NCBI GenBank assembly: GCA_030649165.1 | Contig: JAUSGG010000025.1 | Span: forward strand, 3,967-67,966 | From: Armatimonadota bacterium | Lineage (GTDB): Bacteria > Armatimonadota > UBA5829 > JAUSEB01 | Reading direction: 5' to 3' | DNA length: 64,000 bases | Shown: positions 4,321 through 50,685 of the stretch, one piece after another | Position numbering within the stretch: the first letter of the stretch is position 1 | Layout of the letters: each line of letters begins with the position of its first letter | The notes under the pieces: model-generated | Database searches by the model: none | The model's input: the letters and a program-made list of their open reading frames with translations, nothing else | What the model was told of the DNA's origin: nothing | Position numbers and translations under genes: made by a program

Positions 4321-5397
4321 CTAGCTGATCCCGCAGGTACCAGAAATCACATAGTCTCTGAACCCAGGGAACTCCTTGTCTATATCGATCCACACTGCTT
4401 GTCGGACGTCCTCATGGCTCCGACAGCCCTCTGGGACATTGCAGGGCGGAAACCTCTCCGCAGAAGGATAGCCCCAGTCACTCTCGGAAAAGAAGGCTTT
4501 GAACTTCTCATTGTGGTACTCCGCTAGCCAGCGGTACTTGTCTACTATTCGGGGTCGGTCCAGATTCTTGCGGATCTGCTGGAGAATCTGGTCCCTGTGG
4601 TCCCTCATGTAATCGCCCTGCCATTTCGACTCGGAGAAGGCCTTTGCAAATTCTAGATAGTCGACGAACAATAGACCGTCAGGAGCTTTCTCTAACAACG
4701 AAGCGGCCTCCACGCGACATCGGTAGTCCGGCTCGATGAATCCTTTGACCTTCTCTGCAACAGCAGGGTCAACCACAATACGCGGGTAGATAGCTTTTTC
4801 CCTCTCGAACTCGAAGGCCTCTACAAGCCCGTGGCTGAATATCATCAAGTCGTTTTCGAAGTGTTTGCCAGTCACGATGCCACCACGTACGAAGAATCCG
4901 CTGTGCGCCATCGCCCACTGCATGAAGGCCAGTTCGTAAAGCATATCATTCAGATGGTCCAATGCACACGAAACGACCACGCAGTCAGAGAACATTCTCA
5001 CAGAAATCGGGCCAGGAAAGTACCTGGGCACGACCTCGGATATTTGTCTGAGTGTTCCGCTGAGATTCGCAATGATATGGCGTGCTCGTGCTAGATCGGA
5101 CTCCGCGTCCTCAATGATTTTCTTGAAGCCGAGTATATCTATGAACGCGACCAAGTGTTCATCGTATGATATCTCCGAGTTTTGCCAAGGGTTCTCAAGA
5201 GCGCGTGTTGCACCCAGCGCGATCGCTGCCTTCACGTGCTCGTCGCTCACACTCGGAAACTCTTTCTGAATCTCACTAGCGGTAGAACCTTCCGCAAGAC
5301 TGGCCAGGACGGTACGTAGAGTCACCCGCGTACCTTTCAGCACGGGCTCGCCTCCGCACACTTTGGCGTCACGCACGATGTAGTCTCTGTAATCCAT
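4321..5397 (-). CDS. DUF433 domain fused to nucleotide-cyclase/GGDEF-like palm domain plus ~130-aa C-terminal region of unknown function
   Basis: The N-terminal 70 aa (MDYRDYIVRDAKVCGGEPVLKGTRVTLRTVL...) are ~85% identical to the stand-alone DUF433 protein at 6454-6699. The following region has palm-domain motifs VAFIDILGFKKIIED (compare DxDhFKxIND / FxDIxGFT), MFSDCVVVS (compare GGDEFvv / iGDa) and FVRGGIVTG (compare RiGihtG). It ends 1 nt before alaS. Confidence 0.6.
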   Translation of the reverse strand: MDYRDYIVRDAKVCGGEPVLKGTRVTLRTVLASLAEGSTASEIQKEFPSVSDEHVKAAIALGATRALENPWQNSEISYDEHLVAFIDILGFKKIIEDAESDLARARHIIANLSGTLRQISEVVPRYFPGPISVRMFSDCVVVSCALDHLNDMLYELAFMQWAMAHSGFFVRGGIVTGKHFENDLMIFSHGLVEAFEFEREKAIYPRIVVDPAVAEKVKGFIEPDYRCRVEAASLLEKAPDGLLFVDYLEFAKAFSESKWQGDYMRDHRDQILQQIRKNLDRPRIVDKYRWLAEYHNEKFKAFFSESDWGYPSAERFPPCNVPEGCRSHEDVRQAVWIDIDKEFPGFRDYVISGTCGIS

Positions 5398-5410
5398 GTG
5401 CCAACTCGAC

Positions 5411-5614
5411 CTAGACCTTGCCGGGGTCTCTCAGTTGTGTGAGCACACTGTCAAAATCCTCCGGCGTTTCCTGTCCGCGCTCGATCTTCGCCAATAGGTC
5501 GTCCAATTCTTCTGTCAGTTTAAGATAAGCCCTATAGCCAATGACCACCGACTTCTTCCGCCCTTTGTCGTCAACTATGTACTGGATACTTCCTGTTCTT
5601 GGCATCAATCTCAC
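5411..5614 (-). CDS. small conserved protein (67 aa), first gene of cassette A; possible antitoxin/adaptor
   Basis: 84% identical to the 67-aa ORF at 6708-6911. It sits 13 nt upstream of the DUF433-fusion gene. Confidence 0.55.
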   Translation of the reverse strand: MRLMPRTGSIQYIVDDKGRKKSVVIGYRAYLKLTEELDDLLAKIERGQETPEDFDSVLTQLRDPGKV

Positions 5615-5638
5615 CTCTCCCGAGCGCCTGTTCTCCCC

Positions 5639-5950
5639 TCACGCCACATACACCCGCTCCAGGTTCTCCAGAATATGCCTTCGACGGATGTAATTTTCGC
5701 TTTGTTCGACTGACTCCCGCTCGACTAGATCGACTTTTCTTCCGAGAAGACCGCTCAGTTCGTCCTCGACGCGCACGAGGTCGAACAGACTGTATCGCGC
5801 ATCCGTAGCGAACGTGACGAGAACATCTACGTCGCTATCCGGCCTGAAATCCTCGCGCAGCACGGAGCCGAACAGCGCAAACTCGGTTATCTTCCAATGC
5901 TTGCAGAAGTCAGCGATCTTCTCATGGTCAACCGGAATGTGTAACGTCAT
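5639..5950 (-). CDS. nucleotidyltransferase (MNT / Pol-beta superfamily), apparently orphan (no HEPN partner)
   Basis: [20 protein letters not shown] motif (GS...DxD NTase). The start is moved to the internal Met MTLHIPVDH, since the upstream 29 codons lie in intergenic repeat. Confidence 0.75.
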
Positions 5951-6085
5951 CACTGTCTCCGTAAGGCGACTTCTAAAACTCACGATTCCTAAGAGAAGGC
6001 TGGTTTCGGCATTTGAAATGCCGAAACACCGGCGCAACTGACCAGTTGTTCTCCGTGCGCTCGTATACGACTACGTAGTCTTTCA

Positions 6086-6457
6086 TCATTCTGCTGCCTG
6101 ACGCGGTTTCCGCACACGCACTTTATGGTCGGTCACTATGATAAAACAACCAGCCCAACTCTCGACGTCCTCCGTGCCGAAGACAGTTTGAAGACGTTCG
6201 CGTAAAGTGATACGGCTCGGTTCGCGCAATCGCACGACCACTATTCCCGAATGAACACCGAATACGAACCGACGCAAGTCCGAGAAATCCATGTCTTGAG
6301 TAACAAACAGCCGACCGGCTTGCTGGGCTGCTGCCCATACTTTCTCATCGTCCGCCCCCTGACAGCCCTCAATGGGAACAGTATCCACATCGTGTCCGAA
6401 GGCGGCAATAACGTCACGAAGGGACGCCGGCAGGTTTTCGTCCAGCTTGATCCTCAT
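6086..6457 (-). CDS. DUF5615 (PIN-like) toxin
   Basis: MRIKLDENLPASLRDVIAAFGHDVDTV...FVTQDMDF is typical of DUF5615. 4-nt ATGA overlap with the upstream DUF433 gene. Confidence 0.8.
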   Translation of the reverse strand: MRIKLDENLPASLRDVIAAFGHDVDTVPIEGCQGADDEKVWAAAQQAGRLFVTQDMDFSDLRRFVFGVHSGIVVVRLREPSRITLRERLQTVFGTEDVESWAGCFIIVTDHKVRVRKPRQAAE

Positions 6458-6707: not shown

Positions 6708-6911
6708 CTACACTTTGCCGGGATTTCTCAGTTGTGCGAGGACAGTATCGAAGTCCTCCGGTGTTTCCTGTCCGCGCTCGATCTTCACTAGAAGATCGTC
6801 CAAGTCTTCCATGAGCCTGAGGTACGCCTTATAACTCATCACCACCGATTTCTTCCGGCCTTTGTCGTCGACTATGTATTCGATACTGCCTGTTCTCGGC
6901 ATTAGTCTCAC
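6708..6911 (-). CDS. small conserved protein (67 aa), paralog of 5411-5614; first gene of cassette B
   Basis: MRLMPRTGSIEYIVDDKGRKKSVVMSYKAYLRLMEDLDDL... 8 nt upstream of the DUF433 gene. Confidence 0.55.
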   Translation of the reverse strand: MRLMPRTGSIEYIVDDKGRKKSVVMSYKAYLRLMEDLDDLLVKIERGQETPEDFDTVLAQLRNPGKV

Positions 6912-7045
6912 TTCTGACGACGGTCCAACTCAGAACTCAGCGCTCCTAAGGACAGCCGGTTTCGGGCCGGCGCTGGCTGCCTGCTTCGGCAGCGACGCTG
7001 CCGCTCTGCTACCGAAGGATCGGAAACACAGCTTTTCGATAGAGA

Positions 7046-15030: not shown

Positions 15031-15070
15031 TAGGCTGCTTCCGGTCCGCACGGGTGTGTTAAACGAGCGC

Positions 15071-15114
15071 TTCAACCCTCACCCCAACCCTCTCCCTTCC
15101 AGGGAGAGGGAGTT
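15071..15114. repeat. REP-like hairpin repeat TCACCCCAACCCTCTCCCTTCCAGGGAGAGGGAG
   Basis: 9-bp perfect stem CCCTCTCCC/GGGAGAGGG. Also at 20262-20301, 25587-25636, 45905-45940, 47701-47743 and 62810-62872. Confidence 0.8.
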
Positions 15115-20170: not shown

Positions 20171-20344
20171 TGGTTGGTGGTTGGTCGTCGGTGGTTTGCC
20201 GGATTCGGAAATCGCCACCCGTCTGCAACCCAACGGGAGTTAGCGGTTGGCCATCACTTCAACCCTCACCCCAGCCCTCTCCCTGCCAGGGAGAGGGAGT
20301 TACCGGCGACTCCGCGGAACTATTAACAATGGCTGGAAAATATC

Positions 20345-25543: not shown

Positions 25544-25782
25544 GTTGGTTTTCGGTTGGCGGTTGACGCCAGGGGTTTGCAGGGGCCATCACTTCAACCC
25601 TCACCCCAACCCTCTCCCTTCCAGGGAGAGGGAGTTCTAGCCGTCGACTCCCCCGACTCCTTCGACTCCCCTGCTCGTTTAGCGCCCATTTGCCGGGGGT
25701 AGTACAGAAACGGCAGGCAAAGCTCGGGCCTCTGCGGTAAGAGGCGGTTTTGTCGCCCAACCAACCGAATGGAGGGGGAGAG

Positions 25783-28741: not shown

Positions 28742-29740
28742 CTAGGAGACCGAAGGCCGGCACCGTATCTCCTGCGTTCCATTCAGGCCGAACAGCGATA
28801 GGAGCATCTCCGCTACGAAGCACGGGAGGACGAGCAGGATCGGAAAGAGCAGGCTTAGCGGAAGATCGTAGAGTAAGGTCCTGACGTCCGATCGAACGAC
28901 CCTTTGCCGGCGCAGAAGCTGATAGAGGAAGTTCCGCCTGCATCGCAAGACGTTAAGTATGCTCTGCAGCAGGCCGTAGGGATCGTATTCCGCCGAGAAG
29001 CTTCGTGAGGCGACGATTTCGAAGCCACAGCGCTCCGCGATGCTCGCCAAGGTTTCACGTGAGAAGTGCACGGTGTGGCGAGGAACATCCAAGTGGAACC
29101 ATCTGGATCCCGACAGCCTCGATTGGACGCTGGCGATGTTGGGCGCTCCGATTATCAGCAAACCATCTTCTTTGATGACCCGACGGACCTCGCGAAGAGT
29201 CTCCAGAGGATTGCTGAGGTGTTCCAGCGCGTGGTAGATCGTAACCACATCGAAGGTGTTGTCCGGAAAGCCGCACTCGAGGACTGAACTCCTCCTGACG
29301 TCTATCCCGCATCCCATCAAACTAGACACCAGCGTCTCCGACAGTTCCGTGCCGCAGCATTGCCAGCCGAGCGACTTCAATAGGCGCAGGAATAAGCCTC
29401 TCCCGCAGCCGACATCGAGAACAGAGCCCGTTTTTCTGGCGCCAATTACCTTCTTCGCCCGGCCCCGGCGGAAGGCGAGGATCATTCTCTCGACCGGCGA
29501 ACCGAACCGCTCGCCGGACTCCGATCCATAGTAATCCTCTTGAGGATAGTACCTCCCAAACTCGCTTTCCTGGTCCGGAACGGAGCCGGTGTACGCCATA
29601 CCGCACTCGCCGCACTGGAGCACATCGAAGACTTCCTGGGAGATGTAATCCACGGATCTGAACAGCAGCTTTGCTGTGGAACCGCTGTCAGACTCACAAA
29701 GCGGACAACGCTCAACGGCTTGCACGGTCTCGTCCTCCAA
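28742..29740 (-). CDS. class I SAM-dependent methyltransferase with N-terminal CxxC..CxxC zinc ribbon
   Basis: CPLCES...CGECG, then VLDVGCGRGLF (motif I). Confidence 0.8.
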   Translation of the reverse strand: MEDETVQAVERCPLCESDSGSTAKLLFRSVDYISQEVFDVLQCGECGMAYTGSVPDQESEFGRYYPQEDYYGSESGERFGSPVERMILAFRRGRAKKVIGARKTGSVLDVGCGRGLFLRLLKSLGWQCCGTELSETLVSSLMGCGIDVRRSSVLECGFPDNTFDVVTIYHALEHLSNPLETLREVRRVIKEDGLLIIGAPNIASVQSRLSGSRWFHLDVPRHTVHFSRETLASIAERCGFEIVASRSFSAEYDPYGLLQSILNVLRCRRNFLYQLLRRQRVVRSDVRTLLYDLPLSLLFPILLVLPCFVAEMLLSLFGLNGTQEIRCRPSVS

Positions 29741-29886: not shown

Positions 29887-30331
29887 TCAGCGCGCGTCCA
29901 GATGTTCGGAGGCCCAGGCAACTACGGCCTCGGCAAGGCGCACGGCTTCTCGGTAATCCTCTTCCGTAAGTGGCTCCTCCTCACCGGGGTAGCGTGTTGA
30001 GACGGCGTAGTCCGTGAGTAGTGTGGCGTCCAGGATCACTTCGGGGCAAGGAATGTCAGACGGCAGCAGGTTCAACAAGCTTCTTCAAGTCGTGAGTGTA
30101 GGGGAACTCGATTTGGCGGCGCACCATCACAGCCTTGATGCTCTTTTCAGCCGCCTGCTGCGCATGGTAGCAAAGCAACTCATACAAGCCGTCCGGCGGA
30201 GGCAAGCGTTTCGCCTCGACCAGATCGGCCTTCGCGAACCTCATCCACTTTCGCCATGGGCCTTCGCTTGTGTCGTCAGGCCGCATATAGTTCCCTACCA
30301 TCACGGATGATGTCCCTATAGACAAGGCCAA
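29887..30331 (-). pseudogene. HEPN toxin gene disrupted by a +1 frameshift near 30072-30078 (paralog of 35350-35757)
   Basis: Track ORFs 30056-30331 and 29887-30078 together reproduce the HEPN protein at 35350-35757 (...YTHDLKKL | LNLLPSDIP...TRYPGEEEPLTEEDYREAVRLAEAVV). A single extra base switches frame. Confidence 0.6.
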
Positions 30332-30593
30332 TTGTGTCCTTGTGCTTCTCCAAGTCTGAGGGCGTGGCCACCACGAAATCGACGGGTTTTTCTATGCCTG
30401 GAAGGTTGCGATATAGGTTCTGGGCCGTATGACGTCTGTGCGTGCCGTCCGGCATGACCACCATTACATTGAGGTCGCTATACCGGCCTGCTTCTCCACG
30501 CGCGGCTGAGCCGAACAGGACTATGCGCAAAGGGTGGACGAGATCCACTATCTGCCGCACAAGTTCGTCTAGTTCTGATGTAACTTGGCTCAT
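30276..30593 (-). CDS. MNT nucleotidyltransferase antitoxin-like (partner of HEPN)
   Basis: MSQVTSELDELVRQIVDLVHPLRIVLFGSAARGEAGRYSDLNVMVV. ~70% identical to the MNT at 35747-36076. Confidence 0.8.
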   Translation of the reverse strand: MSQVTSELDELVRQIVDLVHPLRIVLFGSAARGEAGRYSDLNVMVVMPDGTHRRHTAQNLYRNLPGIEKPVDFVVATPSDLEKHKDTIGLVYRDIIRDGRELYAA

Positions 30594-30658
30594 GTCTCCC
30601 GCTCTCCTATCTCCGAGCGTATTATACCACACGAACGGGCGGCTGTTCGTGCGGGTTT

Positions 30659-31693
30659 TCACGCCGGGTCTTGCGCGGGCGGGAGAACAGATTTGGGTTC
30701 CGAGAAGAAGGCTTCCTCTAACGTGATTGCACGTGGGGCACGTGCCAAGCGGCTGTCGCGCGTCAATGTGTACTCGCACGAGCCACCAATAGTGCCGTCG
30801 TCCCGCCGCCACATGAAGTCTGGCTTCAGCGAATAGAGGTGGCGCGTGGCCACATCGGCTGTGTTCGTGTTGAGTTCCGAAACCTTGGAACAGTTCGCGT
30901 AAAGAACCTTGGGCAAGAGCTTGTCGCTAATGAACAGTGCCAGATCGGTGTTCAAAGGCATCATGATCTGAGGCCGACACTGAAGCCGACTGCCGGATGG
31001 CCTTCGTGGTATCTCGACTGTGGGGAATATGGCTACTGGATTGTCCGAGCAGATGAAGTATCCCGCTCCATCCCGTTTGACGACTAAAGACCAGTTGAGC
31101 ACGGATAGATCGCGAGCAAATGGTTCGAAATGATCCAAAAAGTCGAGGATCAGCCTGTTTTGCGGAACATCTATGCGGTAATTATCCCTGTCAACGAAAC
31201 GCTTCATCTGCTCATAGGTCACGGTGGTTGACTCAACGAAGCCATTCCTGCGCGCCTGTTCGAGGGTGTTCTCCCATTCCTCACGTGTAGCCACCTTTGA
31301 CCTAAGGTATCTCTTCGAATCCAGTTCATTGTAGGTGGTCAACTTCTGGCGGAAGTGAAGTGTCCTCCCAGCCTGGCCTGCGACGAAGTAGATCAGGTTG
31401 ACGAAATCGTCTCCCTCCGGCAGGGTGTGATTCTGAGCCATTCTCCTAATAATGGGTGCCGCGTTGCTTTCGATCTGCCCCAGCAGGTCTTCTACGATAT
31501 TCTGGTCGATGCCCGGCGCATTTATTCGGTTGAAATCTTTGCGAACTGCTTCATTGACTGGCGTACCGATCCTGGAACATCCATCATCTTGGAGGTCGAA
31601 CACCCAGAATTTGCCATACTTATCCCCCGTGTCGGTGAACCCACCTAAGTAGAATTGCGATACGAAATGATTGCGGCGCGCTTGTTTAGCCAT
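30659..31693 (-). CDS. DUF4238 domain protein
   Basis: 344 aa. N-terminal RNHFVSQFYLGGF matches the DUF4238 H(H/Y)(V/I)PQFYL+GF signature. Local GC ~50% against a ~65% background. Confidence 0.65.
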   Translation of the reverse strand: MAKQARRNHFVSQFYLGGFTDTGDKYGKFWVFDLQDDGCSRIGTPVNEAVRKDFNRINAPGIDQNIVEDLLGQIESNAAPIIRRMAQNHTLPEGDDFVNLIYFVAGQAGRTLHFRQKLTTYNELDSKRYLRSKVATREEWENTLEQARRNGFVESTTVTYEQMKRFVDRDNYRIDVPQNRLILDFLDHFEPFARDLSVLNWSLVVKRDGAGYFICSDNPVAIFPTVEIPRRPSGSRLQCRPQIMMPLNTDLALFISDKLLPKVLYANCSKVSELNTNTADVATRHLYSLKPDFMWRRDDGTIGGSCEYTLTRDSRLARAPRAITLEEAFFSEPKSVLPPAQDPA

Positions 31694-31708
31694 AATCTCC
31701 GTCGCTGT

Positions 31709-32362
31709 TCAGGCCGAAGATCCCATATCTTTCACGTACCTCTCAATGAGCTCGCCCAAGTGCGGTGCCCTTTTCGCGACTTGGAGACATACGTCTCTCA
31801 AGTTGTCTTTGATGATCTGGTGGTTCTCAGGCGACACACCCGGATCCAACGTCTTCTGCCAATAAAAGCGGGACTCTGCGATCTGCTCATTTAGAAAACC
31901 CACTTGCACTTTAATCTCCGCCAACAGACTCTGAGTAGCATGCCCCAGCATCGCGAGATGTCCCAATTGCGAATCCAGGTACGGCGTGTTGAGGCTCCTC
32001 AAGGAAAGCGCGCGCCGTTCGGCGTCCTCATCGCGTTGCATTAGAACGGTGAGTTCCGCGTCGGGGTACGCGAGCAATGCGCCGATGGCTTTGCTTTGCT
32101 CTTTGTCTGCGTTCGGGCCGTCGTATGCATCAAAGACCGACTTAACCCACTCTAGAAGCGGCCTGTTCGGAGCACCAAAGCGTTTAGCGATATGATATGT
32201 GGTTGCCGCAAGCTTGGCCTGGAGTGCCCGAAGTTCTGCACCTATGGCAGGCTTCACTTCAGCAATCTCTCGACGCCTTCGTATCCCGTCGACAATGATG
32301 GGAGAGAGTACGCCCAGCAGCCATCCCAAGAAGAGGAACAGAACGCTCGGAACCTCGCTCAT
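31709..32362 (-). CDS. hypothetical protein with single N-terminal TM helix
   Basis: Start at MSEVPSVLFLFLGWLLGVLSPIIV, preceded by AGGTGAAGGTGCT. The track's 290-aa version extends into the intergenic hairpin repeat. 15 nt upstream of the DUF4238 gene. Confidence 0.55.
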   Translation of the reverse strand: MSEVPSVLFLFLGWLLGVLSPIIVDGIRRRREIAEVKPAIGAELRALQAKLAATTYHIAKRFGAPNRPLLEWVKSVFDAYDGPNADKEQSKAIGALLAYPDAELTVLMQRDEDAERRALSLRSLNTPYLDSQLGHLAMLGHATQSLLAEIKVQVGFLNEQIAESRFYWQKTLDPGVSPENHQIIKDNLRDVCLQVAKRAPHLGELIERYVKDMGSSA

Positions 32363-32552
32363 AGCACCTTCACCTCGCGCATTCACGAACTTCGGCTTCG
32401 AAGAACAAGCCGAAGCAGCGCGTGCCGACATTATAGCAGAAAGCTGGCCGTGCGGGATCTTCAACCCAGCACGCCTCTTCGCGGGGTTTCGGGGACGGCG
32501 GGTGCGCCAGGATGGGGACGGGGTTACCGTCTGCAGCTCATCACAGGCAAGT

Positions 32553-33659
32553 CTAGAACCGCTCGTCCGGCAGCACGCCATAGTTCCCGACCGCTCTCAC
32601 GATATCTGTCATCAGTTCAGCCGGAAATGAATGTCTCGGGTAAGTTGATGCCACGAACATGCTTTGCCCGCGGGGACTCTCTTGCACAGTGTAGTAATGA
32701 TAGGAATAGTTGGTTACGAACACGGCATTGAAACAGTCGGGCTGATGGGGCGTCGGTTCGCCGAATCGCTTCATCATGGCAGCCATGTCCACCCACCAAG
32801 ATACGTCGAAATCGCCAGGATCGCCAGGCGGAGCATTCAGATCGATGAAGACGGCTGCCGGAAGATCAGGTGGCAACTGCTCCAATGCCTGCTCAAGAAG
32901 GTCACCCGCCTCCTTTGTCGTGGCTTTCACTGCTGACGCAGTAACGGGCTGGTGCAGAACGCCACTCCGATGACGGCTCTTCGCCTCCACGGCGATCCGA
33001 GGTCCCGTTGGCCCATGAGTCGCCACGAACTCGGGGCGCCTGCCCTGCTGGTTCTTTCGTGGATAGTCCAATCTCCACTGGAGGCGGCAGAACATGGCTG
33101 CTACGGCCATCTCATACCTGGCTCCTTGAAAGCCGTCCCACTGCCTCAGACGGTTCAACGTACGCCGGGACAAACACTTAGTGTTTAGCAGTTGGTAGAC
33201 GTCGTAGCCAAGGGCCATCATTGATTGGGCCTCCCCACTGGGGGCAATACGCCAACCTCCAGGACACTCGTTTTCTTCCGTCGCCGACTGTTTGATCCAC
33301 TCGGAAGTGGCACGCCACCATTTGATAATCTGATGCTGGTCCTGCGGTGGTTTCTTCAACTCCGAGTTGCGCCAAGGTTTGCCGAGCGTTCGGAGGAGAA
33401 GCCAGAACAAGAATTCGTGAAAGGTTTCCGACAGCGGACGCGGATATATCTTGAGACCAACCGCACGGTAACGATGCCTGCTGTCAGCACAATCAATCTT
33501 AGGGCGACCTTGAGGATTCCTCTGGCCAGGTGCGTGGAGGGGAAGCACTGGCCATCTTTCCAGCGCTGCGTCGATTTCAGCTATCTTCTCGTGACAGCAC
33601 TCGTCGTAAAGTCGTCCACTGCCGCATGGGCATGGCCTACCTCGATGTGTCTCGGACAT
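32553..33659 (-). CDS. SEC-C motif protein with uncharacterised C-terminal domain (possible PD-(D/E)xK-like)
   Basis: N-terminal RPCPCGSGRLYDECC is a SEC-C metal-binding motif. The region RLDYP...PEF...RIAVEAKSRH could be a D...ExK nuclease motif (speculative). Confidence 0.6.
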   Translation of the reverse strand: MSETHRGRPCPCGSGRLYDECCHEKIAEIDAALERWPVLPLHAPGQRNPQGRPKIDCADSRHRYRAVGLKIYPRPLSETFHEFLFWLLLRTLGKPWRNSELKKPPQDQHQIIKWWRATSEWIKQSATEENECPGGWRIAPSGEAQSMMALGYDVYQLLNTKCLSRRTLNRLRQWDGFQGARYEMAVAAMFCRLQWRLDYPRKNQQGRRPEFVATHGPTGPRIAVEAKSRHRSGVLHQPVTASAVKATTKEAGDLLEQALEQLPPDLPAAVFIDLNAPPGDPGDFDVSWWVDMAAMMKRFGEPTPHQPDCFNAVFVTNYSYHYYTVQESPRGQSMFVASTYPRHSFPAELMTDIVRAVGNYGVLPDERF

Positions 33660-33857
33660 AGTCGATCACCAACGGCCAGGGCACCAAGAACCCCGTGCCA
33701 ACAACTCGTTGGCGATAGTATACCACACGCGCCAATGAGAACCGGCCCCATTTCGTGCTTTCCCAGCTTTCGTGTTATTCGTGATAATCCGCTATCCGCG
33801 TCTATCCGTGTCCATCTGTGGCTTTCCCTGAACCCCACTTCTTGCGATAAAGAAGTC

Positions 33858-33965
33858 CTAAAACTCCGGCGGCAATCCCCGTATCTGCGCGTAGGAAAAC
33901 ACCGGCCCGTCCACGCACACGAACAGATGCCCGATGTTCCACCGCCCGCACTTAACGATTCCGCT
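33858..33965 (-). pseudogene. duplicated 3'-terminal fragment of the flxA/asrB-like gene
   Basis: Encodes MSGIVKCGRWNIGHLFVCVDGPVFSYAQIRGLPPEF*. The last 30 aa are identical to the C-terminus of 37638-38501. DNA is ~88% identical to 37640-37745. Confidence 0.7.
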
Positions 33966-35170
33966 CATAGCTCCGAAAACGGAAGCGTTGTAACGCCCGG
34001 CGCCAGCGGCAGTCTGATGGAACCGGGGTGAATAACGTATCCGGGCCCGGCCCGGTCGCCGAAGTCGTCACGGAACGTCTTTATCGCAGACGCCATAGCG
34101 GGCCTTGGCGTCGCGGAGAGCTTCACCTCGATCGGCACGAGCCCGTCGGGGGTCTCCACGACGAAATCGACCTCCAGCCCGGCTGAAGTGCGCCAGAAGT
34201 AGATGCGAGGTTGTTCCCCCCTGTGGACGGCGGCCTTTGTCAGCTCTGACAAGACCGCGGTCTCCAGAATCGCGCCGCCCATCGGGCCGGAAGCAGCGTG
34301 GTCGGGGTCTTTCAACCCGGTCAGATAGCACAGGATGCCCACGTCCGTAAAGTAGACTTTCGGCGTTTTGACCAGGCGTTTCCCTACGTTGGCGAAGTAC
34401 GGGCGCAGGATCACGATCTGGAACGTTGCTTCCAGGACCGACAGCCAGTTCTTCACTGTGTTGACCGCCACGCCCAGGTCTCGGGACAGGTCGTGGAGGT
34501 TGAGGAGTTGGCCACTTCGCGCCGCCAATGCCCCGAGGAACGCCTGGAACTGGGTCAGATCGCCGACTTGTCTGAGTCCGCGAACGTCCCGCTCCAGATA
34601 CGTCTGTACATACGCCGAATGCCACAGACCGGCGTCGAGGTCCGGGTTGGCGACAAGCTCAGGGTATCCGCCTCGCAGGAAGCTCTCCCACAAAGCGGCG
34701 GCGCCGGCCTTCACGCCAACGGCGGACTCAGCGAACAGGGGCCTTTGAGGATCTCCGGCCGCCTCGCGGCGAGAGAGCGGAAGGAGCCGGAGGACCGCGG
34801 TTCTGCCCGCCAGGGTCTGCGTAACCGTATGGATCATCAGCAGGTTCTGAGAGCCGGTCAGGATATACTGGCCCGGCTGGTCGCGGTGATCGTCGATCCG
34901 CTCCTTGACGTAGGACAGCAGGTCCGGGGCGTTCTGAACCTCGTCAAAGATAGCGGGCGGCGGATAGGCCGCCAGGAAACCGCGCGGGTCCCCGGCCGCA
35001 AACGAGCGCGCGTCCATGGTCTCCAGGGACACGTACTTGTGCGTCTCGCCGAACAGGCGCTTGAGCAGCGTGGTCTTACCCGACTGGCGCGGCCCCGTGA
35101 GAGTTATCGCCGGGAACTGGCTCGCCGCCCGCCGGATGACGGGCTCCAAAGTGCGCTCTATATAAGCCAT
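33965..35170 (-). CDS. AAA+ ATPase (AAA_14 + DUF4143 family)
   Basis: Walker A TGPRQSGKTTLLKRL. Typical AAA_14/DUF4143 architecture. Its stop overlaps the ATG of the flxA remnant. Confidence 0.85.
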   Translation of the reverse strand: MAYIERTLEPVIRRAASQFPAITLTGPRQSGKTTLLKRLFGETHKYVSLETMDARSFAAGDPRGFLAAYPPPAIFDEVQNAPDLLSYVKERIDDHRDQPGQYILTGSQNLLMIHTVTQTLAGRTAVLRLLPLSRREAAGDPQRPLFAESAVGVKAGAAALWESFLRGGYPELVANPDLDAGLWHSAYVQTYLERDVRGLRQVGDLTQFQAFLGALAARSGQLLNLHDLSRDLGVAVNTVKNWLSVLEATFQIVILRPYFANVGKRLVKTPKVYFTDVGILCYLTGLKDPDHAASGPMGGAILETAVLSELTKAAVHRGEQPRIYFWRTSAGLEVDFVVETPDGLVPIEVKLSATPRPAMASAIKTFRDDFGDRAGPGYVIHPGSIRLPLAPGVTTLPFSEL

Positions 35171-35349: not shown

Positions 35350-35757
35350 TTAGGCGCTGTCGTCGAAGCCAAGATAGCGGGCTGCCCAGCGAACAACCGC
35401 CTCAGCCAAACGAACGGCTTCTCGGTAATCCTCTTCCGTGAGTGGTTCTTCCTCGCCGGGGTAGCGGGTTGTGACGGCGTAGGCGCTTAGGCGAGCCGAA
35501 TCGTCAACTTCGGGGGAACGCGGGATGTCCGCGGGTAGCAGGTCGAGGAGTTTCTGTAGGTTGTGTGTATAGGGGAAATCGACGCCGGCCGCCACGAGTA
35601 TCGCTTTGAGGCTCTTCTCGACCGCCTGTTGGGCGTGGTAGCAAAGTGTCTCATACATGCCGTATTCGGGCAGAGGGCCGCGCGCCATAGCAAGATCGGC
35701 CCTGGCGTATTGCATCCATTGTTGAGGTGAGCCGAAAGCTGGACGTTCAGGCGGCAT
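35350..35757 (-). CDS. HEPN domain toxin-like protein
   Basis: YHAQQAVEKSLKA ... TRYPGEE is typical of HEPN. Confidence 0.8.
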   Translation of the reverse strand: MPPERPAFGSPQQWMQYARADLAMARGPLPEYGMYETLCYHAQQAVEKSLKAILVAAGVDFPYTHNLQKLLDLLPADIPRSPEVDDSARLSAYAVTTRYPGEEEPLTEEDYREAVRLAEAVVRWAARYLGFDDSA

Positions 35758-36076
35758 AGATCTCCTTGCCTTCGCGAAGGACTGCCCGGTATATGAGGCC
35801 TATCGTGTCCTTGTGTTTTTCGAGGTCCGTCGGGGTAGCGACTACGATATCGACGGCGACCGAGATGCCGGATAGGCGCTGGTAGAGGTCCATCGCCGTA
35901 TGGCGGCGGTGCGTGCCGTCCGGCATTACGACCATAACGTCGATGTCGCTGTCCGGCCCGGCCTGGCCGCGAGCAGCGGAGCCGAACAGGATGATGCGCA
36001 ACGGATGCGCGGCTTCGACGATGCGCTGAACCAATTCATCAATCTCTGCTTTGTTGGGTCGTTCCGGATAGGTCAT
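35747..36076 (-). CDS. MNT nucleotidyltransferase antitoxin-like
   Basis: LFGSAARGQAGPDSDIDVMVV. 11-nt overlap with the HEPN gene. Confidence 0.85.
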   Translation of the reverse strand: MTYPERPNKAEIDELVQRIVEAAHPLRIILFGSAARGQAGPDSDIDVMVVMPDGTHRRHTAMDLYQRLSGISVAVDIVVATPTDLEKHKDTIGLIYRAVLREGKEIYAA

Positions 36077-36384
36077 GATGTAACCCGGCGATATTATACC
36101 ACACGGGCGGGGAGGTGTTTCGCGGGGTTGGCGGATGAATATCCGCGGGAGTCAACCGGGATACATATCCCGGTGGATCGGTTTCCAGCCACATAATGCG
36201 AATGGAGACAGTGCAGTAAAGACGAGTTCTGGACTGTGGCAGTAAGGAGTTGTGCCGGCGATTGACAAAAACTGTCTCTTCTCTTATAGTTGAGGCAACC
36301 TGGAGCAGCCTTTGTCAATCGTGCAATGGTTGGCAGCATAGCCGTGGGTCCACGTACATTGCCTCCGAGGAGGAACAGGATCTG

Positions 36385-37365
36385 ATGAATTGGGTGGAAA
36401 GGGCATTGAACACAGAGAAGTTGTGGCCGGCTCGTGTAGCATCATTCATAGCAAGCATTGTCACCTCCATCGCTAGCGTGGCGGGGGTCGTTCTCGCTGT
36501 GAAGTCCACTGCGGACGCAAAGTTTTGGTACGTTGCCATTTCCTCCAGCGTGTACATACTGTGCTTGCTGGTTATAATGGGTTTCTTCATGATGGCGGCT
36601 ATGCGTGACGGACGACGGCTAGCCGAGAGAGACCTCACAATACAAATGTTGACTGAGCAGAAAGATGGTGCCGCTGCGGAACTGCAGGAGGCAGAGCAGC
36701 GTATATCAGTGTGTCGGCGATCGTTCGTCAGTATGCATGAGGTGGCCCATCTGTTTAGAGACGCAATGGCTCCCGCATTCATACACGACGGCTCCGCGAC
36801 AATAGACGACATGTACTTCGAGAGGATTCTGGACGCGCTAAAATCCGTCCTCGACCAATGGACTGGATTCGACACAGCACTCTCCATAAAGCTCTTTGTG
36901 GATGAACATAAGACTCTCAGAACGCTCTGTCGCGATGGGTTCTCAAAGCCCATCAGGGGTATGGATGATGACGAAAACACCTTCAAGGCCGACAAGAACA
37001 CGGCCTTCAACGTCATAATGAATGGAGAGCGATATTTTGCCTGCGGGGATGTGACCGTGGAGCCACACTATCTGAACGAGACGCCGAATTATGGCAAGCT
37101 CTATAGATCGACAATAGTCGTGCCGATAAAATTCTATGGGGGAGGGAAGAAGCTGCACTACGGCTTCCTGACGGCCGACTGGAAAGAGGCCGACGCCTTT
37201 GATCCGCAAACGGACCATTTACTTCTGGGTACCGTAAGTGATATGATAGTTCCACTTTTGGCCGAGTACAACAGAAGTTTAGGAATGGCCCAAAGTAGCC
37301 CAAAACCCATTAGCGCCAAAGTCGAGAATGAGGAAGAGGAGATCCTAGATGCCCGTAAAGTATGA
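36385..37365 (+). CDS. two-TM membrane protein with GAF-like cytoplasmic domain
   Basis: Start at ATG 36385 behind GAGGAGGAAC. Helices FIASIVTSIASVAGVVLAV and VAISSSVYILCLLVIMGFFMMAA. C-terminal STIVVPIKFYGGGKKLHYGFLTAD resembles the GAF ...vvPi...g.l.gvL motif. GC ~48%. Confidence 0.6.
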   Translation: MNWVERALNTEKLWPARVASFIASIVTSIASVAGVVLAVKSTADAKFWYVAISSSVYILCLLVIMGFFMMAAMRDGRRLAERDLTIQMLTEQKDGAAAELQEAEQRISVCRRSFVSMHEVAHLFRDAMAPAFIHDGSATIDDMYFERILDALKSVLDQWTGFDTALSIKLFVDEHKTLRTLCRDGFSKPIRGMDDDENTFKADKNTAFNVIMNGERYFACGDVTVEPHYLNETPNYGKLYRSTIVVPIKFYGGGKKLHYGFLTADWKEADAFDPQTDHLLLGTVSDMIVPLLAEYNRSLGMAQSSPKPISAKVENEEEEILDARKV

Positions 37366-37637: not shown

Positions 37638-38501
37638 TTAGAACTCCGGCGGCAATCCCCTAATCTGCGCATACGAGAACACCGGCCCGTCCACGCACAC
37701 GAACAAGTGCCCAATGTTGCAGCGGCCGCATTTACCGACGCCGCATTTCATCTTCATCTCGAGCGTGGTGTAGATCTGCTCGTCGGTGAAGCCCAGAGTC
37801 GCAAGGTTCTGGAGGACGAACTTGATCATGATCGGCGGGCCGCAGGTGATGGCGATGGTGTTGTCCGGTTTCGGGGCCAAGTCGTTGAGGTAGGCGGGGA
37901 CGAAGCCGACGTTGTGCTGCCAGCCTTCCTCTTCCTTGTCGATGGTCAGGAAGAGGTTGGTGTTTTTGGAGTTGCGCCACGCGTCGAACTCGGTCTTGTA
38001 GCAAAGCAGGTCGGATGAGCGCGCGCCGTAGATCACGTCCACGCGGCCGTAGTCGTCCCGGTTGTCCAGGCAGAAGTTGAGCAGCGAGCGCAGCGGAGCC
38101 ATTCCGATGCCTCCCCCGATGAACAGCAAATCCTTGCCCTTCCATTCCTGATACGGGAACCAGTTGCCGAACGGGCCGCGGATGCCGACGACAGCCCCCT
38201 CGCTCATCTCGTGCAGCGCGTCGGTCAGCGAGCCGACCTTGCGCACGGAGAACTCGATGGAGCCGGGGCGTGTGGGCGTTGAGGCGAGACAGAACGTGGC
38301 CTCGCCGACGCCGAAGACGGAGACCTCCTGGAACTGGCCCGGCTTGTAGGTGAACTTCTCGCGCATTTCCTCGTCCTGGAAAACGGCGCGGAAGGTCTTG
38401 GTGTCCCAGGTCTCTTCGACGATCTCCTCGATGGTCGCCAAAAGCGGCTTGTACGGGTTCTGCTTCATCTGCTCGATGGTTGCTGGTTGGGCGCTACTCA
38501 T
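37638..38501 (-). CDS. FAD/NAD(P)-binding [2Fe-2S] oxidoreductase, FlxA / sulfhydrogenase gamma (HydG) / AsrB-like
   Basis: FNR-like fold with a C-terminal CGVGKCGRCNIG cluster motif. Confidence 0.85.
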   Translation of the reverse strand: MSSAQPATIEQMKQNPYKPLLATIEEIVEETWDTKTFRAVFQDEEMREKFTYKPGQFQEVSVFGVGEATFCLASTPTRPGSIEFSVRKVGSLTDALHEMSEGAVVGIRGPFGNWFPYQEWKGKDLLFIGGGIGMAPLRSLLNFCLDNRDDYGRVDVIYGARSSDLLCYKTEFDAWRNSKNTNLFLTIDKEEEGWQHNVGFVPAYLNDLAPKPDNTIAITCGPPIMIKFVLQNLATLGFTDEQIYTTLEMKMKCGVGKCGRCNIGHLFVCVDGPVFSYAQIRGLPPEF

Positions 38502-47594: not shown

Positions 47595-47945
47595 CTTGTT
47601 TCCGCTTAGTCTGGTTCAAGGGAGAACGCAGATGAACGCGGATGTACGCTGATGAACACAGATAGGGTTAGCAGTTTGCAGTCGTCAGTCTTCGAGCAGT
47701 TCAACCCTCACCCCAGCCCTCTCCCTGCCAGGGAGAGGGAGTGGCACGGTTTTCGTATGCTCCGGGACTTGATCGCGCGCGATATGCCATCGCGTGTGAA
47801 ACAGAATGTCGGGATTTCAAATCCCTGAGTTCTGTTTCGGGCGTCATTGCAAATAACGCCCGATCAAGGCCGTTCCGCAGGATAGAATCCATCGGCGTTC
47901 ATCAGTGTTTATCAGCGTTCATCTGCGTTCTTCCCTGAACCTACC
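47595..47945. repeat. composite repeat: two GATGAACGC-family arms (47595-47665, 47880-47945) flanking a REP-like hairpin and the 110-bp repeat
   Basis: Nested arrangement. Arm GGTTCAAGGGAGAACGCAGATGAACGCGGATG... and inverse arm ...CATCTGCGTTCTTCCCTGAACC enclose 47701-47743 (REP) and 47762-47880. Confidence 0.7.
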
Positions 47946-50685
47946 TGATCAGGTTCACCATCAGCCGCTCCGCGACGGGGTCGAACATCTTCCCCTCTGC
48001 CAGGCGCTCGGCGATGCGGATTTGGCAGGCGAGGACCACGCCTTTGCCCAACCGCAGCCGCAGCAGGGCGCGCGCGTTCAGGCCCTGCTGGTCGGACGAG
48101 CCTATCGCCAGCGTCTCGCCTTCACTCTTTTTCGAGAAGAAGTGGGTCAGGCCCTCAGCGCCGGAGCCGTTCCAGTTTTCCATATAGGCATCGGCTATAC
48201 CACGCCAAAGGGGATCGTTTTGTTGCCCCTTCTCCTTAAACAGGTAGGAAACGTCCCGCTTCTTGGTTATTTCTACGCCAAACAGTCCTTCCGGCCAGCT
48301 TGTCTGGTCCAAGATTATGAGCTTCCCGCCGGAGTTGGCCCATTCCTTTATCTTGTCCATTCTTTGGGTCACAGCCTCGGAGCCAAGCGCGTCTTTGCCG
48401 ATGATGAGAACGTCGCAATCCGGACCGTCCGCGGACCTCACTTCCACGCCGGCCGACTTCGCCCAGTCTGTAAGAGCGGTTCCCTGCTCTATGATCGCGA
48501 CCTTCGCTCCCTTTACCGGCTGGATTGAGACGCTTCTGTCGAGCACGTGAATCGGACGCTTGCTGATGACGGTCTCGCGGCCTTTGACCTCCAGCGTCGC
48601 GTACAGCCAATAGCTGCCCTCCTGCTCCGGGAGAGGAAGCGTTACGTCGTGCGGCGTCGCGGAATACGGCGGTATGTTCACCTCAAGGGTGTTCTTCGCA
48701 ATCGGCGCGGCGGGCGGGGCGGCGAAGATGTAGGGAGGGTCCTCGTTCACGAGGTAGACGCTGACTTTGCCCTTCTTCGCCTTCTCCAAATCGTTCATCG
48801 TCCAGACCGGCAGCTTTAGCTCCGAGCCGGCGGCGAAATGACGATCGACCAGGTCTATGCTCACGGCGACCGGGGCCAGGGAGTTCTTCAGCGCGTAGTA
48901 CGTGTCCCACTTCTTCTCGGCAATAGTCTCACCTTTGGACATGAACATCCCGTACCAGAACGGAAGCAGGCCGTCGAACCGCAGCCTGCGCTTGACTTCC
49001 GTCTGTTCCATTGTGAATAGCGCATGTGTGAACTCCGCCCGTTCGAGGGTTACGTTGTAACCCATCCACTTCTGGGCGCGCCCATTGTCCGGCTTGCCGA
49101 ATCCCTTGACCGCAGTTTCGAGGTACTCTGTGTCGCAGAGGGGCTTGTCCGGGTTGTGGTCCTTCAGGTAAGTTGCCGCGTGAATGTGGTCTCCGATCGT
49201 CCCGGTCCAGAATCCCTCATAGTTGTGCTGGTCGGCGATATCCGCGCTGACCGCTCCCGCGCGCATCACCGGCCTGGTGGGATCGAGCTTCTTAAAGAAT
49301 GGGACGAGGACCTTGTTCTCGTGCTCGCTGTAGTCCCCGTAAGGCTCGTTGCAGGCGGCCCAAATGATGATCGAGGGGTGGTTCCAGAGACTCTCGGCGA
49401 TCAGCTCCATTTCCGAATAGAGCTTATCCGCGAAACCCGGTCGTTTGTAGTAGTTCGGACCTCCCTCCGGGGGCCAGTTGGGAAACTCGGAGATCAGCAT
49501 TGTCCCGCACTCGTCGGCTATGTCGTAGTACGCCTTGTACCAGGGTCCCATGTGGGTGCGGAAGACGTTGGCGTTCATGCCGCGCGCATCGGCGCCGAGG
49601 TACTTTCGTATCCACTTGCGGTCGGTGAGTATTTCGGCGGCAGTCCCCCAACTCGGGAAGCCGGTTATCGCCAAATCCGTGGCGCCCCGAAGGAATATCT
49701 TCGTACCATTCAGGTAGAAATCGCCGCCCTTGCAGACGAACTCCCGCATCCCGAAGGTCTCGTCGATGTGGTCGCATACGGCGCCGCCTTCTGCTTTTGC
49801 GGTGACGTTCAGCGAGTAGAGGAACGGGTCATCCGGCGACCAAAGGCGCGGTTTGCCGATCTTGACCGTGTCGCTGACTGTTGCGGTTTCACCCCGCTCG
49901 ATGACGACAAACGCCGAATAGTCGTCGGAAGCCTTCCGTTTAGACTTCCTCTCACTGGCCGCGAACTCCACCGAGACCTTCTGAGGCGCTTTTCCCTGGT
50001 TAGTCAGCCGGATCGTGACCTGCGCGCTGCCGTTGTGGATATTGGGGTCGATTTTGATCCCTGAGATCGTTACCTCCCGGAAGAACCGCAGCTCGACGTC
50101 GCCCATAATGCCGGACGCGCCCTGCGCCCAGCCTTTGTTGCCGAACGGGATTTTCGGAACGCCGTCGTCGTACTTGGGTATCGTATGACCGCCGCCCTGT
50201 CTGATGTAGATAAGGTTGTCTTCGCCGGGGCGGATGGCGGAGGTCGCGTCGAACTCGACCGGTCGATACGCTCCCACGTGCTCGCCGAGTCGGACGCCGT
50301 TAAGCCAGACCTCTGCCGACCATCTCACATCGACAATGTGCAGCAGGCAGTTCATGCCCCGGAGTCCTTCATCAACACGGAAGCGTTTGCGGTACCAGCA
50401 GTGATTCTGCTCGTGCAGCTTCTTGTTCCCCTCCTTGCCGGGCTCTTTGGTCCACTCCGGGCCGAGGCCCTTCGCGTTTCCCCACAGCGCGGGGACCAGG
50501 ATCGTCCCCCATTGGTAGCGGTCGCCGTCCTGAATCTGCTCGTCGTCGTGAGCGGGAAGAAACTGCCACTGGCCGCTCAGGGGCAGAGTCACGCGGGGGC
50601 GAACGACGCCGGCGGAGCTTTGACCCGCTGCCAGCGCCACGAGCGCGCATAGCGAGATAGCAAGGCTAAGGATGTCCATTCTCAT
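47941..50685 (-). CDS. secreted glycoside hydrolase family 2 (beta-galactosidase / beta-mannosidase-like)
   Basis: 914 aa. Signal peptide. GH2 sugar-binding domain (WQF...VWLNG..LGEHVGAY.P.EFD), then TIM barrel (NANVFRTH...WAACNEP). Confidence 0.85.
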   Translation of the reverse strand: MRMDILSLAISLCALVALAAGQSSAGVVRPRVTLPLSGQWQFLPAHDDEQIQDGDRYQWGTILVPALWGNAKGLGPEWTKEPGKEGNKKLHEQNHCWYRKRFRVDEGLRGMNCLLHIVDVRWSAEVWLNGVRLGEHVGAYRPVEFDATSAIRPGEDNLIYIRQGGGHTIPKYDDGVPKIPFGNKGWAQGASGIMGDVELRFFREVTISGIKIDPNIHNGSAQVTIRLTNQGKAPQKVSVEFAASERKSKRKASDDYSAFVVIERGETATVSDTVKIGKPRLWSPDDPFLYSLNVTAKAEGGAVCDHIDETFGMREFVCKGGDFYLNGTKIFLRGATDLAITGFPSWGTAAEILTDRKWIRKYLGADARGMNANVFRTHMGPWYKAYYDIADECGTMLISEFPNWPPEGGPNYYKRPGFADKLYSEMELIAESLWNHPSIIIWAACNEPYGDYSEHENKVLVPFFKKLDPTRPVMRAGAVSADIADQHNYEGFWTGTIGDHIHAATYLKDHNPDKPLCDTEYLETAVKGFGKPDNGRAQKWMGYNVTLERAEFTHALFTMEQTEVKRRLRFDGLLPFWYGMFMSKGETIAEKKWDTYYALKNSLAPVAVSIDLVDRHFAAGSELKLPVWTMNDLEKAKKGKVSVYLVNEDPPYIFAAPPAAPIAKNTLEVNIPPYSATPHDVTLPLPEQEGSYWLYATLEVKGRETVISKRPIHVLDRSVSIQPVKGAKVAIIEQGTALTDWAKSAGVEVRSADGPDCDVLIIGKDALGSEAVTQRMDKIKEWANSGGKLIILDQTSWPEGLFGVEITKKRDVSYLFKEKGQQNDPLWRGIADAYMENWNGSGAEGLTHFFSKKSEGETLAIGSSDQQGLNARALLRLRLGKGVVLACQIRIAERLAEGKMFDPVAERLMVNLIR

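Follow-up and report, generated by a model that had tools for sequence, protein, structure and literature searches.

A single DUF4238 protein from an E. coli P2-prophage hotspot confers strong T7 resistance on its own (Rousset et al. 2022, PMC9122126). Rugutis, an abortive-infection-like (Abi-like) system of 359 aa encoded by a single gene (pUCCL633_059, BioProject PRJNA1086404) on a lactococcal plasmid, carries an N-terminal SEC-C motif in a protein whose fold is otherwise unassigned (Grafakou et al. 2024, PMC11381338), and its trigger is phage c2's large terminase (PMC12184496). A further single-gene system, Aristaios, belongs to the DUF2971 family (PMC11381338). Here we describe a 3-kb stretch (positions 30659-33659) of a 64,000-nt window from an Armatimonadota metagenome-assembled genome (MAG; GenBank assembly GCA_030649165.1, contig JAUSGG010000025.1, positions 3,967 to 67,966), in which genes for a SEC-C protein, a single-pass transmembrane (TM) protein and a DUF4238 protein follow one another, and which a first-pass annotation had read as one candidate defence module. 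Our analysis makes it probable, on balance, that the locus is a composite defence island of independent modules, in which the three are separately evolving genes and not one dedicated system. On this reading the 3-kb stretch forms part of a composite island some 7.7 kb long, at roughly 29.9-37.6 kb of the window.

Gene organization and co-occurrence of the three families

The stretch comprises the following genes:

32553-33659, minus strand: SEC-C gene, 368 aa; N-terminal SEC-C zinc motif, middle domain and C-terminal PD-(D/E)xK nuclease-like core (modelled)
31709-32362, minus strand: TM gene, 217 aa; single-pass membrane protein with an N-terminal TM helix followed by a predicted helical bundle
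30659-31693, minus strand: DUF4238 gene, 344 aa; divergent member of a single-gene anti-phage family

The list of open reading frames (ORFs) agreed with the first-pass annotation in placing three co-directional genes at these positions, all on the minus strand, and the junctions were tight as it had described, with gaps of 190 nt between the SEC-C and TM genes and 15 nt between the TM and DUF4238 genes. Whether the three families travel together was assessed at 117 loci. The SEC-C set comprised 87 loci with 516 kb of flanking sequence (80 obtained by scanning metagenomes with an alignment trimmed at its N-terminus, 6 from look-ups of three homologues and 1 plasmid), the TM-family set comprised 19 loci in about 8 distinct contexts, and the DUF4238 set comprised 11 loci in 9 distinct contexts. 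Each locus was translated in six frames and searched with profile hidden Markov models (HMMs) of all three families. The results showed that two of the families were found together at none of the 87 SEC-C loci, none of the 19 TM loci and none of the 11 DUF4238 loci, and single-sequence phmmer searches agreed. Thus, conservation of the triad, on which the claim of a module had been made to depend, was absent from the sample, with 0/117 loci carrying any pair. In addition, none of the known multi-gene models in PADLOC was matched: the TM protein matched nothing, the SEC-C protein gave only motif noise (E2 models, E≥0.004), and the DUF4238 protein matched a single-gene model. Recurrence, which would have lifted the triad above chance juxtaposition, was thus not seen in these loci; the triad is not supported as a module, and its members look more like separately acquired single genes than like parts of a three-part system.

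The gene models used in these comparisons were checked against homologues. The SEC-C start giving 368 aa is backed by 32 full-length homologues with the N-terminal motif. The deposited annotation of the source MAG (public locus tags on the contig, Q7T82_02705 and Q7T82_02710) gives a SEC-C product of only 222 aa, in which the zinc motif and the middle domain are missed, and because of this shorter public gene call an exact look-up of the 368-aa protein gave no record. For the TM gene the longest ORF extends to 32581; alignments back the 217-aa start instead, since the homologues all start just ahead of the LGWLLG helix. The ribosome-binding site noted earlier for the TM gene was found as a Shine-Dalgarno-like GAGG/GGAG sequence ahead of its start, and a similar sequence precedes the DUF4238 start.

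The composition of the stretch had been put at about 50% guanine plus cytosine (GC) against a background of about 65%, and both values proved wrong. At 30659-33659 the GC content is 55.3%, the average of the window being 59.3%, and the stretch ranks among the lowest 4.4% of 3-kb windows (standard deviation 1.8%, within the 64-kb window). A clearer signal than overall GC came from GC at third codon positions (GC3), which is 62-64% in the SEC-C, TM and DUF4238 genes versus 78-88% in neighbouring housekeeping genes; by this measure the three genes are plausibly foreign.

The SEC-C, DUF4238 and TM proteins

Searches of PDB sequences with the three family profiles returned nothing significant, and the SEC-C protein in particular had no sequence-level relative there. 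The SEC-C motif of the first protein was confirmed at residues 9-23 of 368 (Pfam, E 5e-5), and no further Pfam, NCBIfam or PADLOC domain was detected. The family comprises at least 238 proteins of approximately 360-400 aa from many phyla. In an alignment of 33 sequences (the window protein and 32 homologues) the zinc ligands are C10, C12 and C21, and the other invariant residues are H109, G142, D153, Q178, G179, Y182, E183, E210, F211, E225, K227, S228, A258, F271, D273, N275 and Y360, with E210, E225 and K227 present in 33/33 sequences. An AlphaFold model built on the family alignment (pLDDT, the predicted local distance difference test, 86.7) contained an alpha-beta-beta-beta-alpha-beta unit, in which E183 is predicted to lie on helix 1, E210 at the start of strand 2 and E225-x-K227 on strand 3, and the PD-(D/E)xK core spans residues ~175-340. 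When this model was used for a Foldseek search, the restriction enzyme PspGI was the only match below E 1e-3 (probability 0.96); SfsA and HindIII came next and Hjc ranked lower, all three weaker than E 1e-2. The invariant E...ExK motif and the modelled fold matches fit the earlier suggestion of a possible nuclease-like C-terminus. We take the SEC-C protein to combine a zinc-binding knuckle and a conserved middle domain with a catalytic core of the restriction-endonuclease-like type, and it would have nuclease activity.

The surroundings of the SEC-C family were then catalogued with Pfam and PADLOC on 107 immediate neighbours of its homologues, which included DNA methylases (5), LexA-like repressors (4), serine recombinases (3) and an integrase (1), as well as an MvaI/BcnI restriction enzyme and STAND NTPases. 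At single loci the gene lay beside a type III restriction-modification (R-M) system and a relaxase, a phage-type integrase, a serine recombinase, or an integrase and a type I R-M system. In every context examined it was a solo gene. One homologue (P0006 / L018:3665-5035) is annotated as a 456-aa fusion with N-terminal HicB-like and HicA domains, which could reflect either an error of gene calling or a genuine fusion to a toxin-antitoxin module. By analogy with single-gene abortive-infection systems such as Rugutis, the window protein would act as a solo, trigger-dependent nuclease that cleaves nucleic acid once its trigger is present.

The DUF4238 assignment of the third gene was confirmed (Pfam PF14022, E 3.6e-33), the match scoring 115.6 bits where the gathering cut-off is 27 and covering profile positions 1-279 of 281. 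The protein also matched the PADLOC model PDLC03000 'DUF4238-Pers' (E 2e-29, 101 bits, profile positions 4-231 of 309) and phrog_29785, a PHROG group without assigned function. A word-index homologue search returned one relative, with 24% identity; by tblastn, sequences with 24-31% identity turned up in 20 plasmid records and in the P2-like phage pro483. An alignment of 10 plasmid, phage and metagenome members showed 13 invariant residues, H9, Q13, Y15, L16 and F19 (forming an N-terminal HxxxQxYLxxF motif), E68, E75, R110, R115, E161, W201, D217 and P219, and the window protein keeps 13/13. Since all of the invariant residues are kept, the protein is probably functional and probably an enzyme. 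The first-pass annotation had counted DUF4238 among proteins that recur in defence islands, and the T7 resistance conferred by a family member alone bears this out (PMC9122126). The window protein may be a self-contained sensor and effector enzyme and, by analogy with the E. coli member, would suffice by itself against phage.

The DUF4238 homologues encoded by plasmids and by phage pro483 share no conserved partner: they are solo or lie beside unrelated genes, integrases and insertion sequence (IS) elements. The gene is solo in pro483 and, between IS elements, on a Bradyrhizobium plasmid; elsewhere unrelated small genes precede it. On the Cupriavidus basilensis plasmid pRK1-3 (L112:1918-3966), two small helical proteins with N-terminal TM segments are encoded directly upstream of DUF4238, one of the genes overlapping by 4 nt. 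These two proteins were considered as TM-family members and ruled out by hhalign (probability 0.1), so that the arrangement is an analogue and not a homologue of the one in the window.

The second gene had been called a single-TM protein, and it is a single-pass membrane protein with an N-terminal TM helix. A word-index search found only 2 relatives. Searched exhaustively with a profile, the family came to 1,206 cluster representatives at E≤1e-3, of which 292 reached E≤1e-30; almost all are 205-225 aa long, and members include one from a Hodarchaeota MAG and one from a Burkholderiales MAG. No Pfam, NCBIfam, PADLOC or PHROG family matched the protein, and the family had no matches in IMG/VR or PLSDB. 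Only three residues are invariant, of which G13 and W14 belong to the TM helix and E43 follows shortly after it. G17 is near-invariant, so that the LGWLLG segment holds a GxxxG motif, which is followed by basic residues (RRRRE in the window protein). The GxxxG formed by G13-W14 and the near-invariant G17 suggests that the protein is oligomeric in the membrane, and by the positive-inside rule its soluble part would face the cytoplasm. The description of this protein as effector-like was not supported, the predicted fold being only a generic helical bundle.

The homologues of the TM gene occur in diverse settings. In L013:64-1393 the TM-family gene is directly upstream of a DUF2971 gene, and in L100:2715-5868 it comes after a cluster of TIR and caspase-like Peptidase_C14 genes, beside a resolvase; others lie between dapD and dapE, before a TPR protein gene and after an ORF6N gene. 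Defence genes adjoin the TM-family gene in 3 of the ~8 sampled contexts. Together, these data indicated that the TM protein belongs to a large unannotated family of single-pass proteins with a predicted helical bundle and without a fixed partner across genomes. In the window it would be a membrane-anchored, probably oligomeric bundle whose transcription is joined to that of DUF4238 by local arrangement.

Promoter-like elements and anatomy of the island

Two promoter-like elements bear on the transcription of the three genes:

33717-33728, minus strand: 12-mer GTGTGGTATACT, extended -10 promoter-like element, 58 nt upstream of the SEC-C start
32430-32438, minus strand: TGCTATAAT, extended -10-like element inside the 190-nt SEC-C/TM gap, without a good -35

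The 12-mer GTGTGGTATAMT occurs three times in the 64 kb, where 0 occurrences are expected, at 30621-30632, 33717-33728 and 36093-36104 (minus strand), a short way upstream of the starts of MNT1, SEC-C and MNT2, respectively (the MNT genes are described below). The regions upstream of SEC-C and MNT2 resemble each other over 22 nt (91% identity); this points to a promoter or operator that is shared or was captured. The TGCTATAAT pattern has 5 matches in the window versus 0.3 expected, and its copy in the SEC-C/TM gap is a candidate internal promoter for TM and DUF4238. In a sigma-70 consensus scan none of the extended -10 elements, which are without a -35, was called, and the case for them is one of motif recurrence. 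Read as putative promoters, these elements suggest that SEC-C and TM-DUF4238 are transcribed separately; with their 15-nt gap and Shine-Dalgarno sequences, TM and DUF4238 are probably co-transcribed here.

The three genes are flanked by further modules:

29887-30331, minus strand: HEPN1, ORFs 30056-30331 and 29887-30078, split by a 1-nt indel relative to HEPN2
30276-30593, minus strand: MNT1, antitoxin-type nucleotidyltransferase (Pfam NTP_transf_2, PADLOC PDC-S09), with the GTGTGGTATAAT element at 30621-30632
33859-33964, minus strand: displaced copy of the 3' end of a FAD/NAD oxidoreductase gene (37638-38501), partner repeat at 37639-37744
33965-35170, minus strand: AAA_14-DUF4143 ATPase, PADLOC candidate PDC-S01 (PDLC04790, E 1e-112), a separate module
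35350-36076, minus strand: intact MNT2-HEPN2 pair, MNT2 at 35747-36076 and HEPN2 at 35350-35757, overlapping by 11 nt (Pfam)

The surroundings had been described as typical of a defence island, and this was upheld by the two MNT/HEPN modules, the PDC-S01 candidate ATPase, whose AAA_14-DUF4143 assignment Pfam confirmed, and the DUF4238 gene itself. The further claim that HEPN/MNT modules bracket the three genes held in part: Pfam places MNT and HEPN on both sides, but the proximal HEPN is frameshifted. The Pfam HEPN match of HEPN1 covers profile positions 2-61 of 117 only, and alignment with HEPN2 shows the frameshift, so that HEPN1 either is a pseudogene, the remains of a toxin next to a still intact MNT1, or owes its split to an error in the MAG assembly. 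The MNT1-HEPN1 and MNT2-HEPN2 modules, which lie 5471 nt apart, are old paralogues with 70-85% identity (MNT1/MNT2 ~70% at the DNA level). The ATPase gene, with a GC content of 64% and a GC3 of 79%, is unlike the SEC-C, TM and DUF4238 genes in composition.

The oxidoreductase 3' end forms a direct repeat of 106 nt with 85% identity and a spacing of 3780 nt, and the two copies bracket a 3.78-kb insert containing the DUF4143 ATPase, MNT2-HEPN2 and a 371-aa membrane ORF. The repeat is the footprint left by integration into the 3' end of that gene, yet there is no integrase in the island. On its other side the locus is bordered by a methyltransferase gene (28742-29740). Since the block of SEC-C, TM, DUF4238 and MNT1-HEPN1 lies beyond the bracketed insert, at least two nested or adjacent acquisitions must have taken place. 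The 371-aa ORF (36250-37365, plus strand) is the sole plus-strand gene of the island and has its lowest GC (51%); it has N-terminal TM segments, belongs to no Pfam family, and its one PADLOC match is marginal (PDC-M01B, E 0.005).

A genome-wide repeat element is present at 33781-33834, after the displaced end of the oxidoreductase gene. It belongs to the first of two dispersed intergenic repeat families in the window, with copies at 33781-33834, 39638-39691, 44276-44329, 46252-46315, 46465-46528 and 47888-47951; those of the second are at 15062-15114, 20249-20301, 25584-25636 and 47691-47743. One of the two families is built of (A/T)TC(A/T)GCGTT-rich units with CCCTGAACC at the end, and the other contains a palindrome, CCCTCTCCCT..AGGGAGAGGG. 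Both families consist of short repeats and look like elements of the repetitive extragenic palindromic (REP) type belonging to this genome. Elsewhere in the window, a second low-GC patch (4321-6457, 53-55%) just downstream of alaS codes for a DUF433 protein of 358 aa and a further MNT-type nucleotidyltransferase, carries a DUF5615/PIN-like gene as well, and is another toxin-antitoxin cluster; a 213-nt internal repeat is found there at 5411-5623 and 6708-6920.

Alternative readings and comparison with known systems

Several observations weigh against treating the three genes as independent. They share orientation, a similar GC3 and tight spacing, and the 15-nt TM/DUF4238 junction is operon-like. 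The DUF4238 protein has no close relative, the best being 24% identical, so that the comparison had no true orthologous locus to draw on and a lineage-specific partnership is possible. The distinct contexts of the TM family (~8) and of DUF4238 (9) are few, and many of the metagenomic contigs are short. In addition, the arrangement on pRK1-3, taken together with the TM homologue before DUF2971, hints at a looser functional link. The fullest such reading, that of the first-pass annotation, makes the SEC-C nuclease, the TM protein and the DUF4238 protein one novel three-component defence system. The co-directional order of the genes, the low GC3 of all three and their position within a defence island speak for it, and the one promoter-like element before SEC-C could drive all three genes. 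This we consider very improbable, since no pair of the families recurs in the 117 loci, a 190-nt gap with its own promoter-like element parts SEC-C from TM, and SEC-C stands solo wherever its context was seen. A narrower reading, in which TM and DUF4238 form a lineage-specific two-gene module with the TM protein tethering, gating or neutralising a DUF4238 effector and SEC-C an independent neighbour, is a possible but unlikely one. It would account for the 15-nt gap with its Shine-Dalgarno sequence, the candidate extended -10 upstream of TM and the similar GC3 of both genes, and it draws on the two N-terminal-TM helical proteins encoded directly upstream of DUF4238 on pRK1-3 and on the TM-family gene preceding an Aristaios-type DUF2971 gene in L013. 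However, a DUF4238 member suffices alone in E. coli (PMC9122126), DUF4238 was found at 0/19 TM loci and the TM family at 0/11 DUF4238 loci, the Cupriavidus upstream proteins are non-homologous to the TM family, and TM homologues are met outside defence settings too, as between dapD and dapE.

A related idea, to which we give only a small chance, is that the TM family supplies interchangeable partners (a tether, a gate or an immunity factor) for varied single-gene effectors, namely DUF4238 here, DUF2971 in L013 and the TIR-caspase cluster in L100; if true, TM-DUF4238 would be a two-component form of what has been regarded as a single-gene system. It is about as improbable that the three genes are inert cargo or serve non-defence roles, such as mobile-element maintenance or membrane housekeeping, the defence label then being guilt by association. 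The decayed state of the neighbouring HEPN1, the island without an integrase and the TM homologues in housekeeping surroundings would suit such cargo, but each of the three ORFs is intact with every family-invariant residue in place, anti-phage activity has been shown by experiment within the DUF4238 family (PMC9122126), and the SEC-C family adjoins R-M systems and recombinases. Weighed together, the evidence reduces the locus to an island of independent parts, and it is therefore not one to pursue as a new system.

As a composite of such parts, the locus can be compared with known systems piece by piece. The MNT/HEPN flanks resemble type II toxin-antitoxin modules of this kind, with strong domain matches and the typical gene order, and the PDC-S09 and PDC-S01 candidates are matched likewise; all of these genes are neighbours and lie outside the three-gene stretch, and HEPN1 departs from the type by its frameshift. 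The SEC-C protein is predicted to share its core fold and the placement of E210 and ExK with PD-(D/E)xK effectors, including HamA of Hachiman, NucC, McrC, CdiA-CT toxins and type II restriction endonucleases. By description it matches Rugutis in size and architecture, both having a SEC-C motif of ~20 residues at the extreme N-terminus followed by ~340 residues without a Pfam domain, and both Rugutis and the SEC-C family are single genes carried on mobile elements. A tblastn search of PLSDB gave no full-length Lactococcus match, which is uninformative if the Rugutis plasmid is absent from PLSDB; "SEC-C" proteins from Enterococcus and Bacillus plasmids were considered as Rugutis candidates and ruled out by their differing architectures. 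Should the two be homologous, the E...ExK core would offer a testable nuclease mechanism for Rugutis. The closest correspondence is that of the DUF4238 gene to Rst_DUF4238/DUF4238-Pers. As in that system, the DUF4238 domain runs from end to end, PDLC03000 is matched, and the HxxxQxYLxxF motif and all other invariants are present; like its plasmid and pro483 homologues, the gene also sits among defence genes and mobile cargo. The window protein shares only 24-31% identity with the phage and plasmid members and is spanned by the PADLOC model at residues 5-232 only, its C-terminal 110 residues being different; its host is an Armatimonadota bacterium and not a P2 prophage, and a TM gene abuts it at 15 nt. 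DUF4238 defence genes thus reach Armatimonadota in a very divergent form that nevertheless keeps the invariant residues. Together, these comparisons leave the three-gene system first flagged at this locus unsupported and show instead a new, divergent representative of known kinds within a typical defence island.

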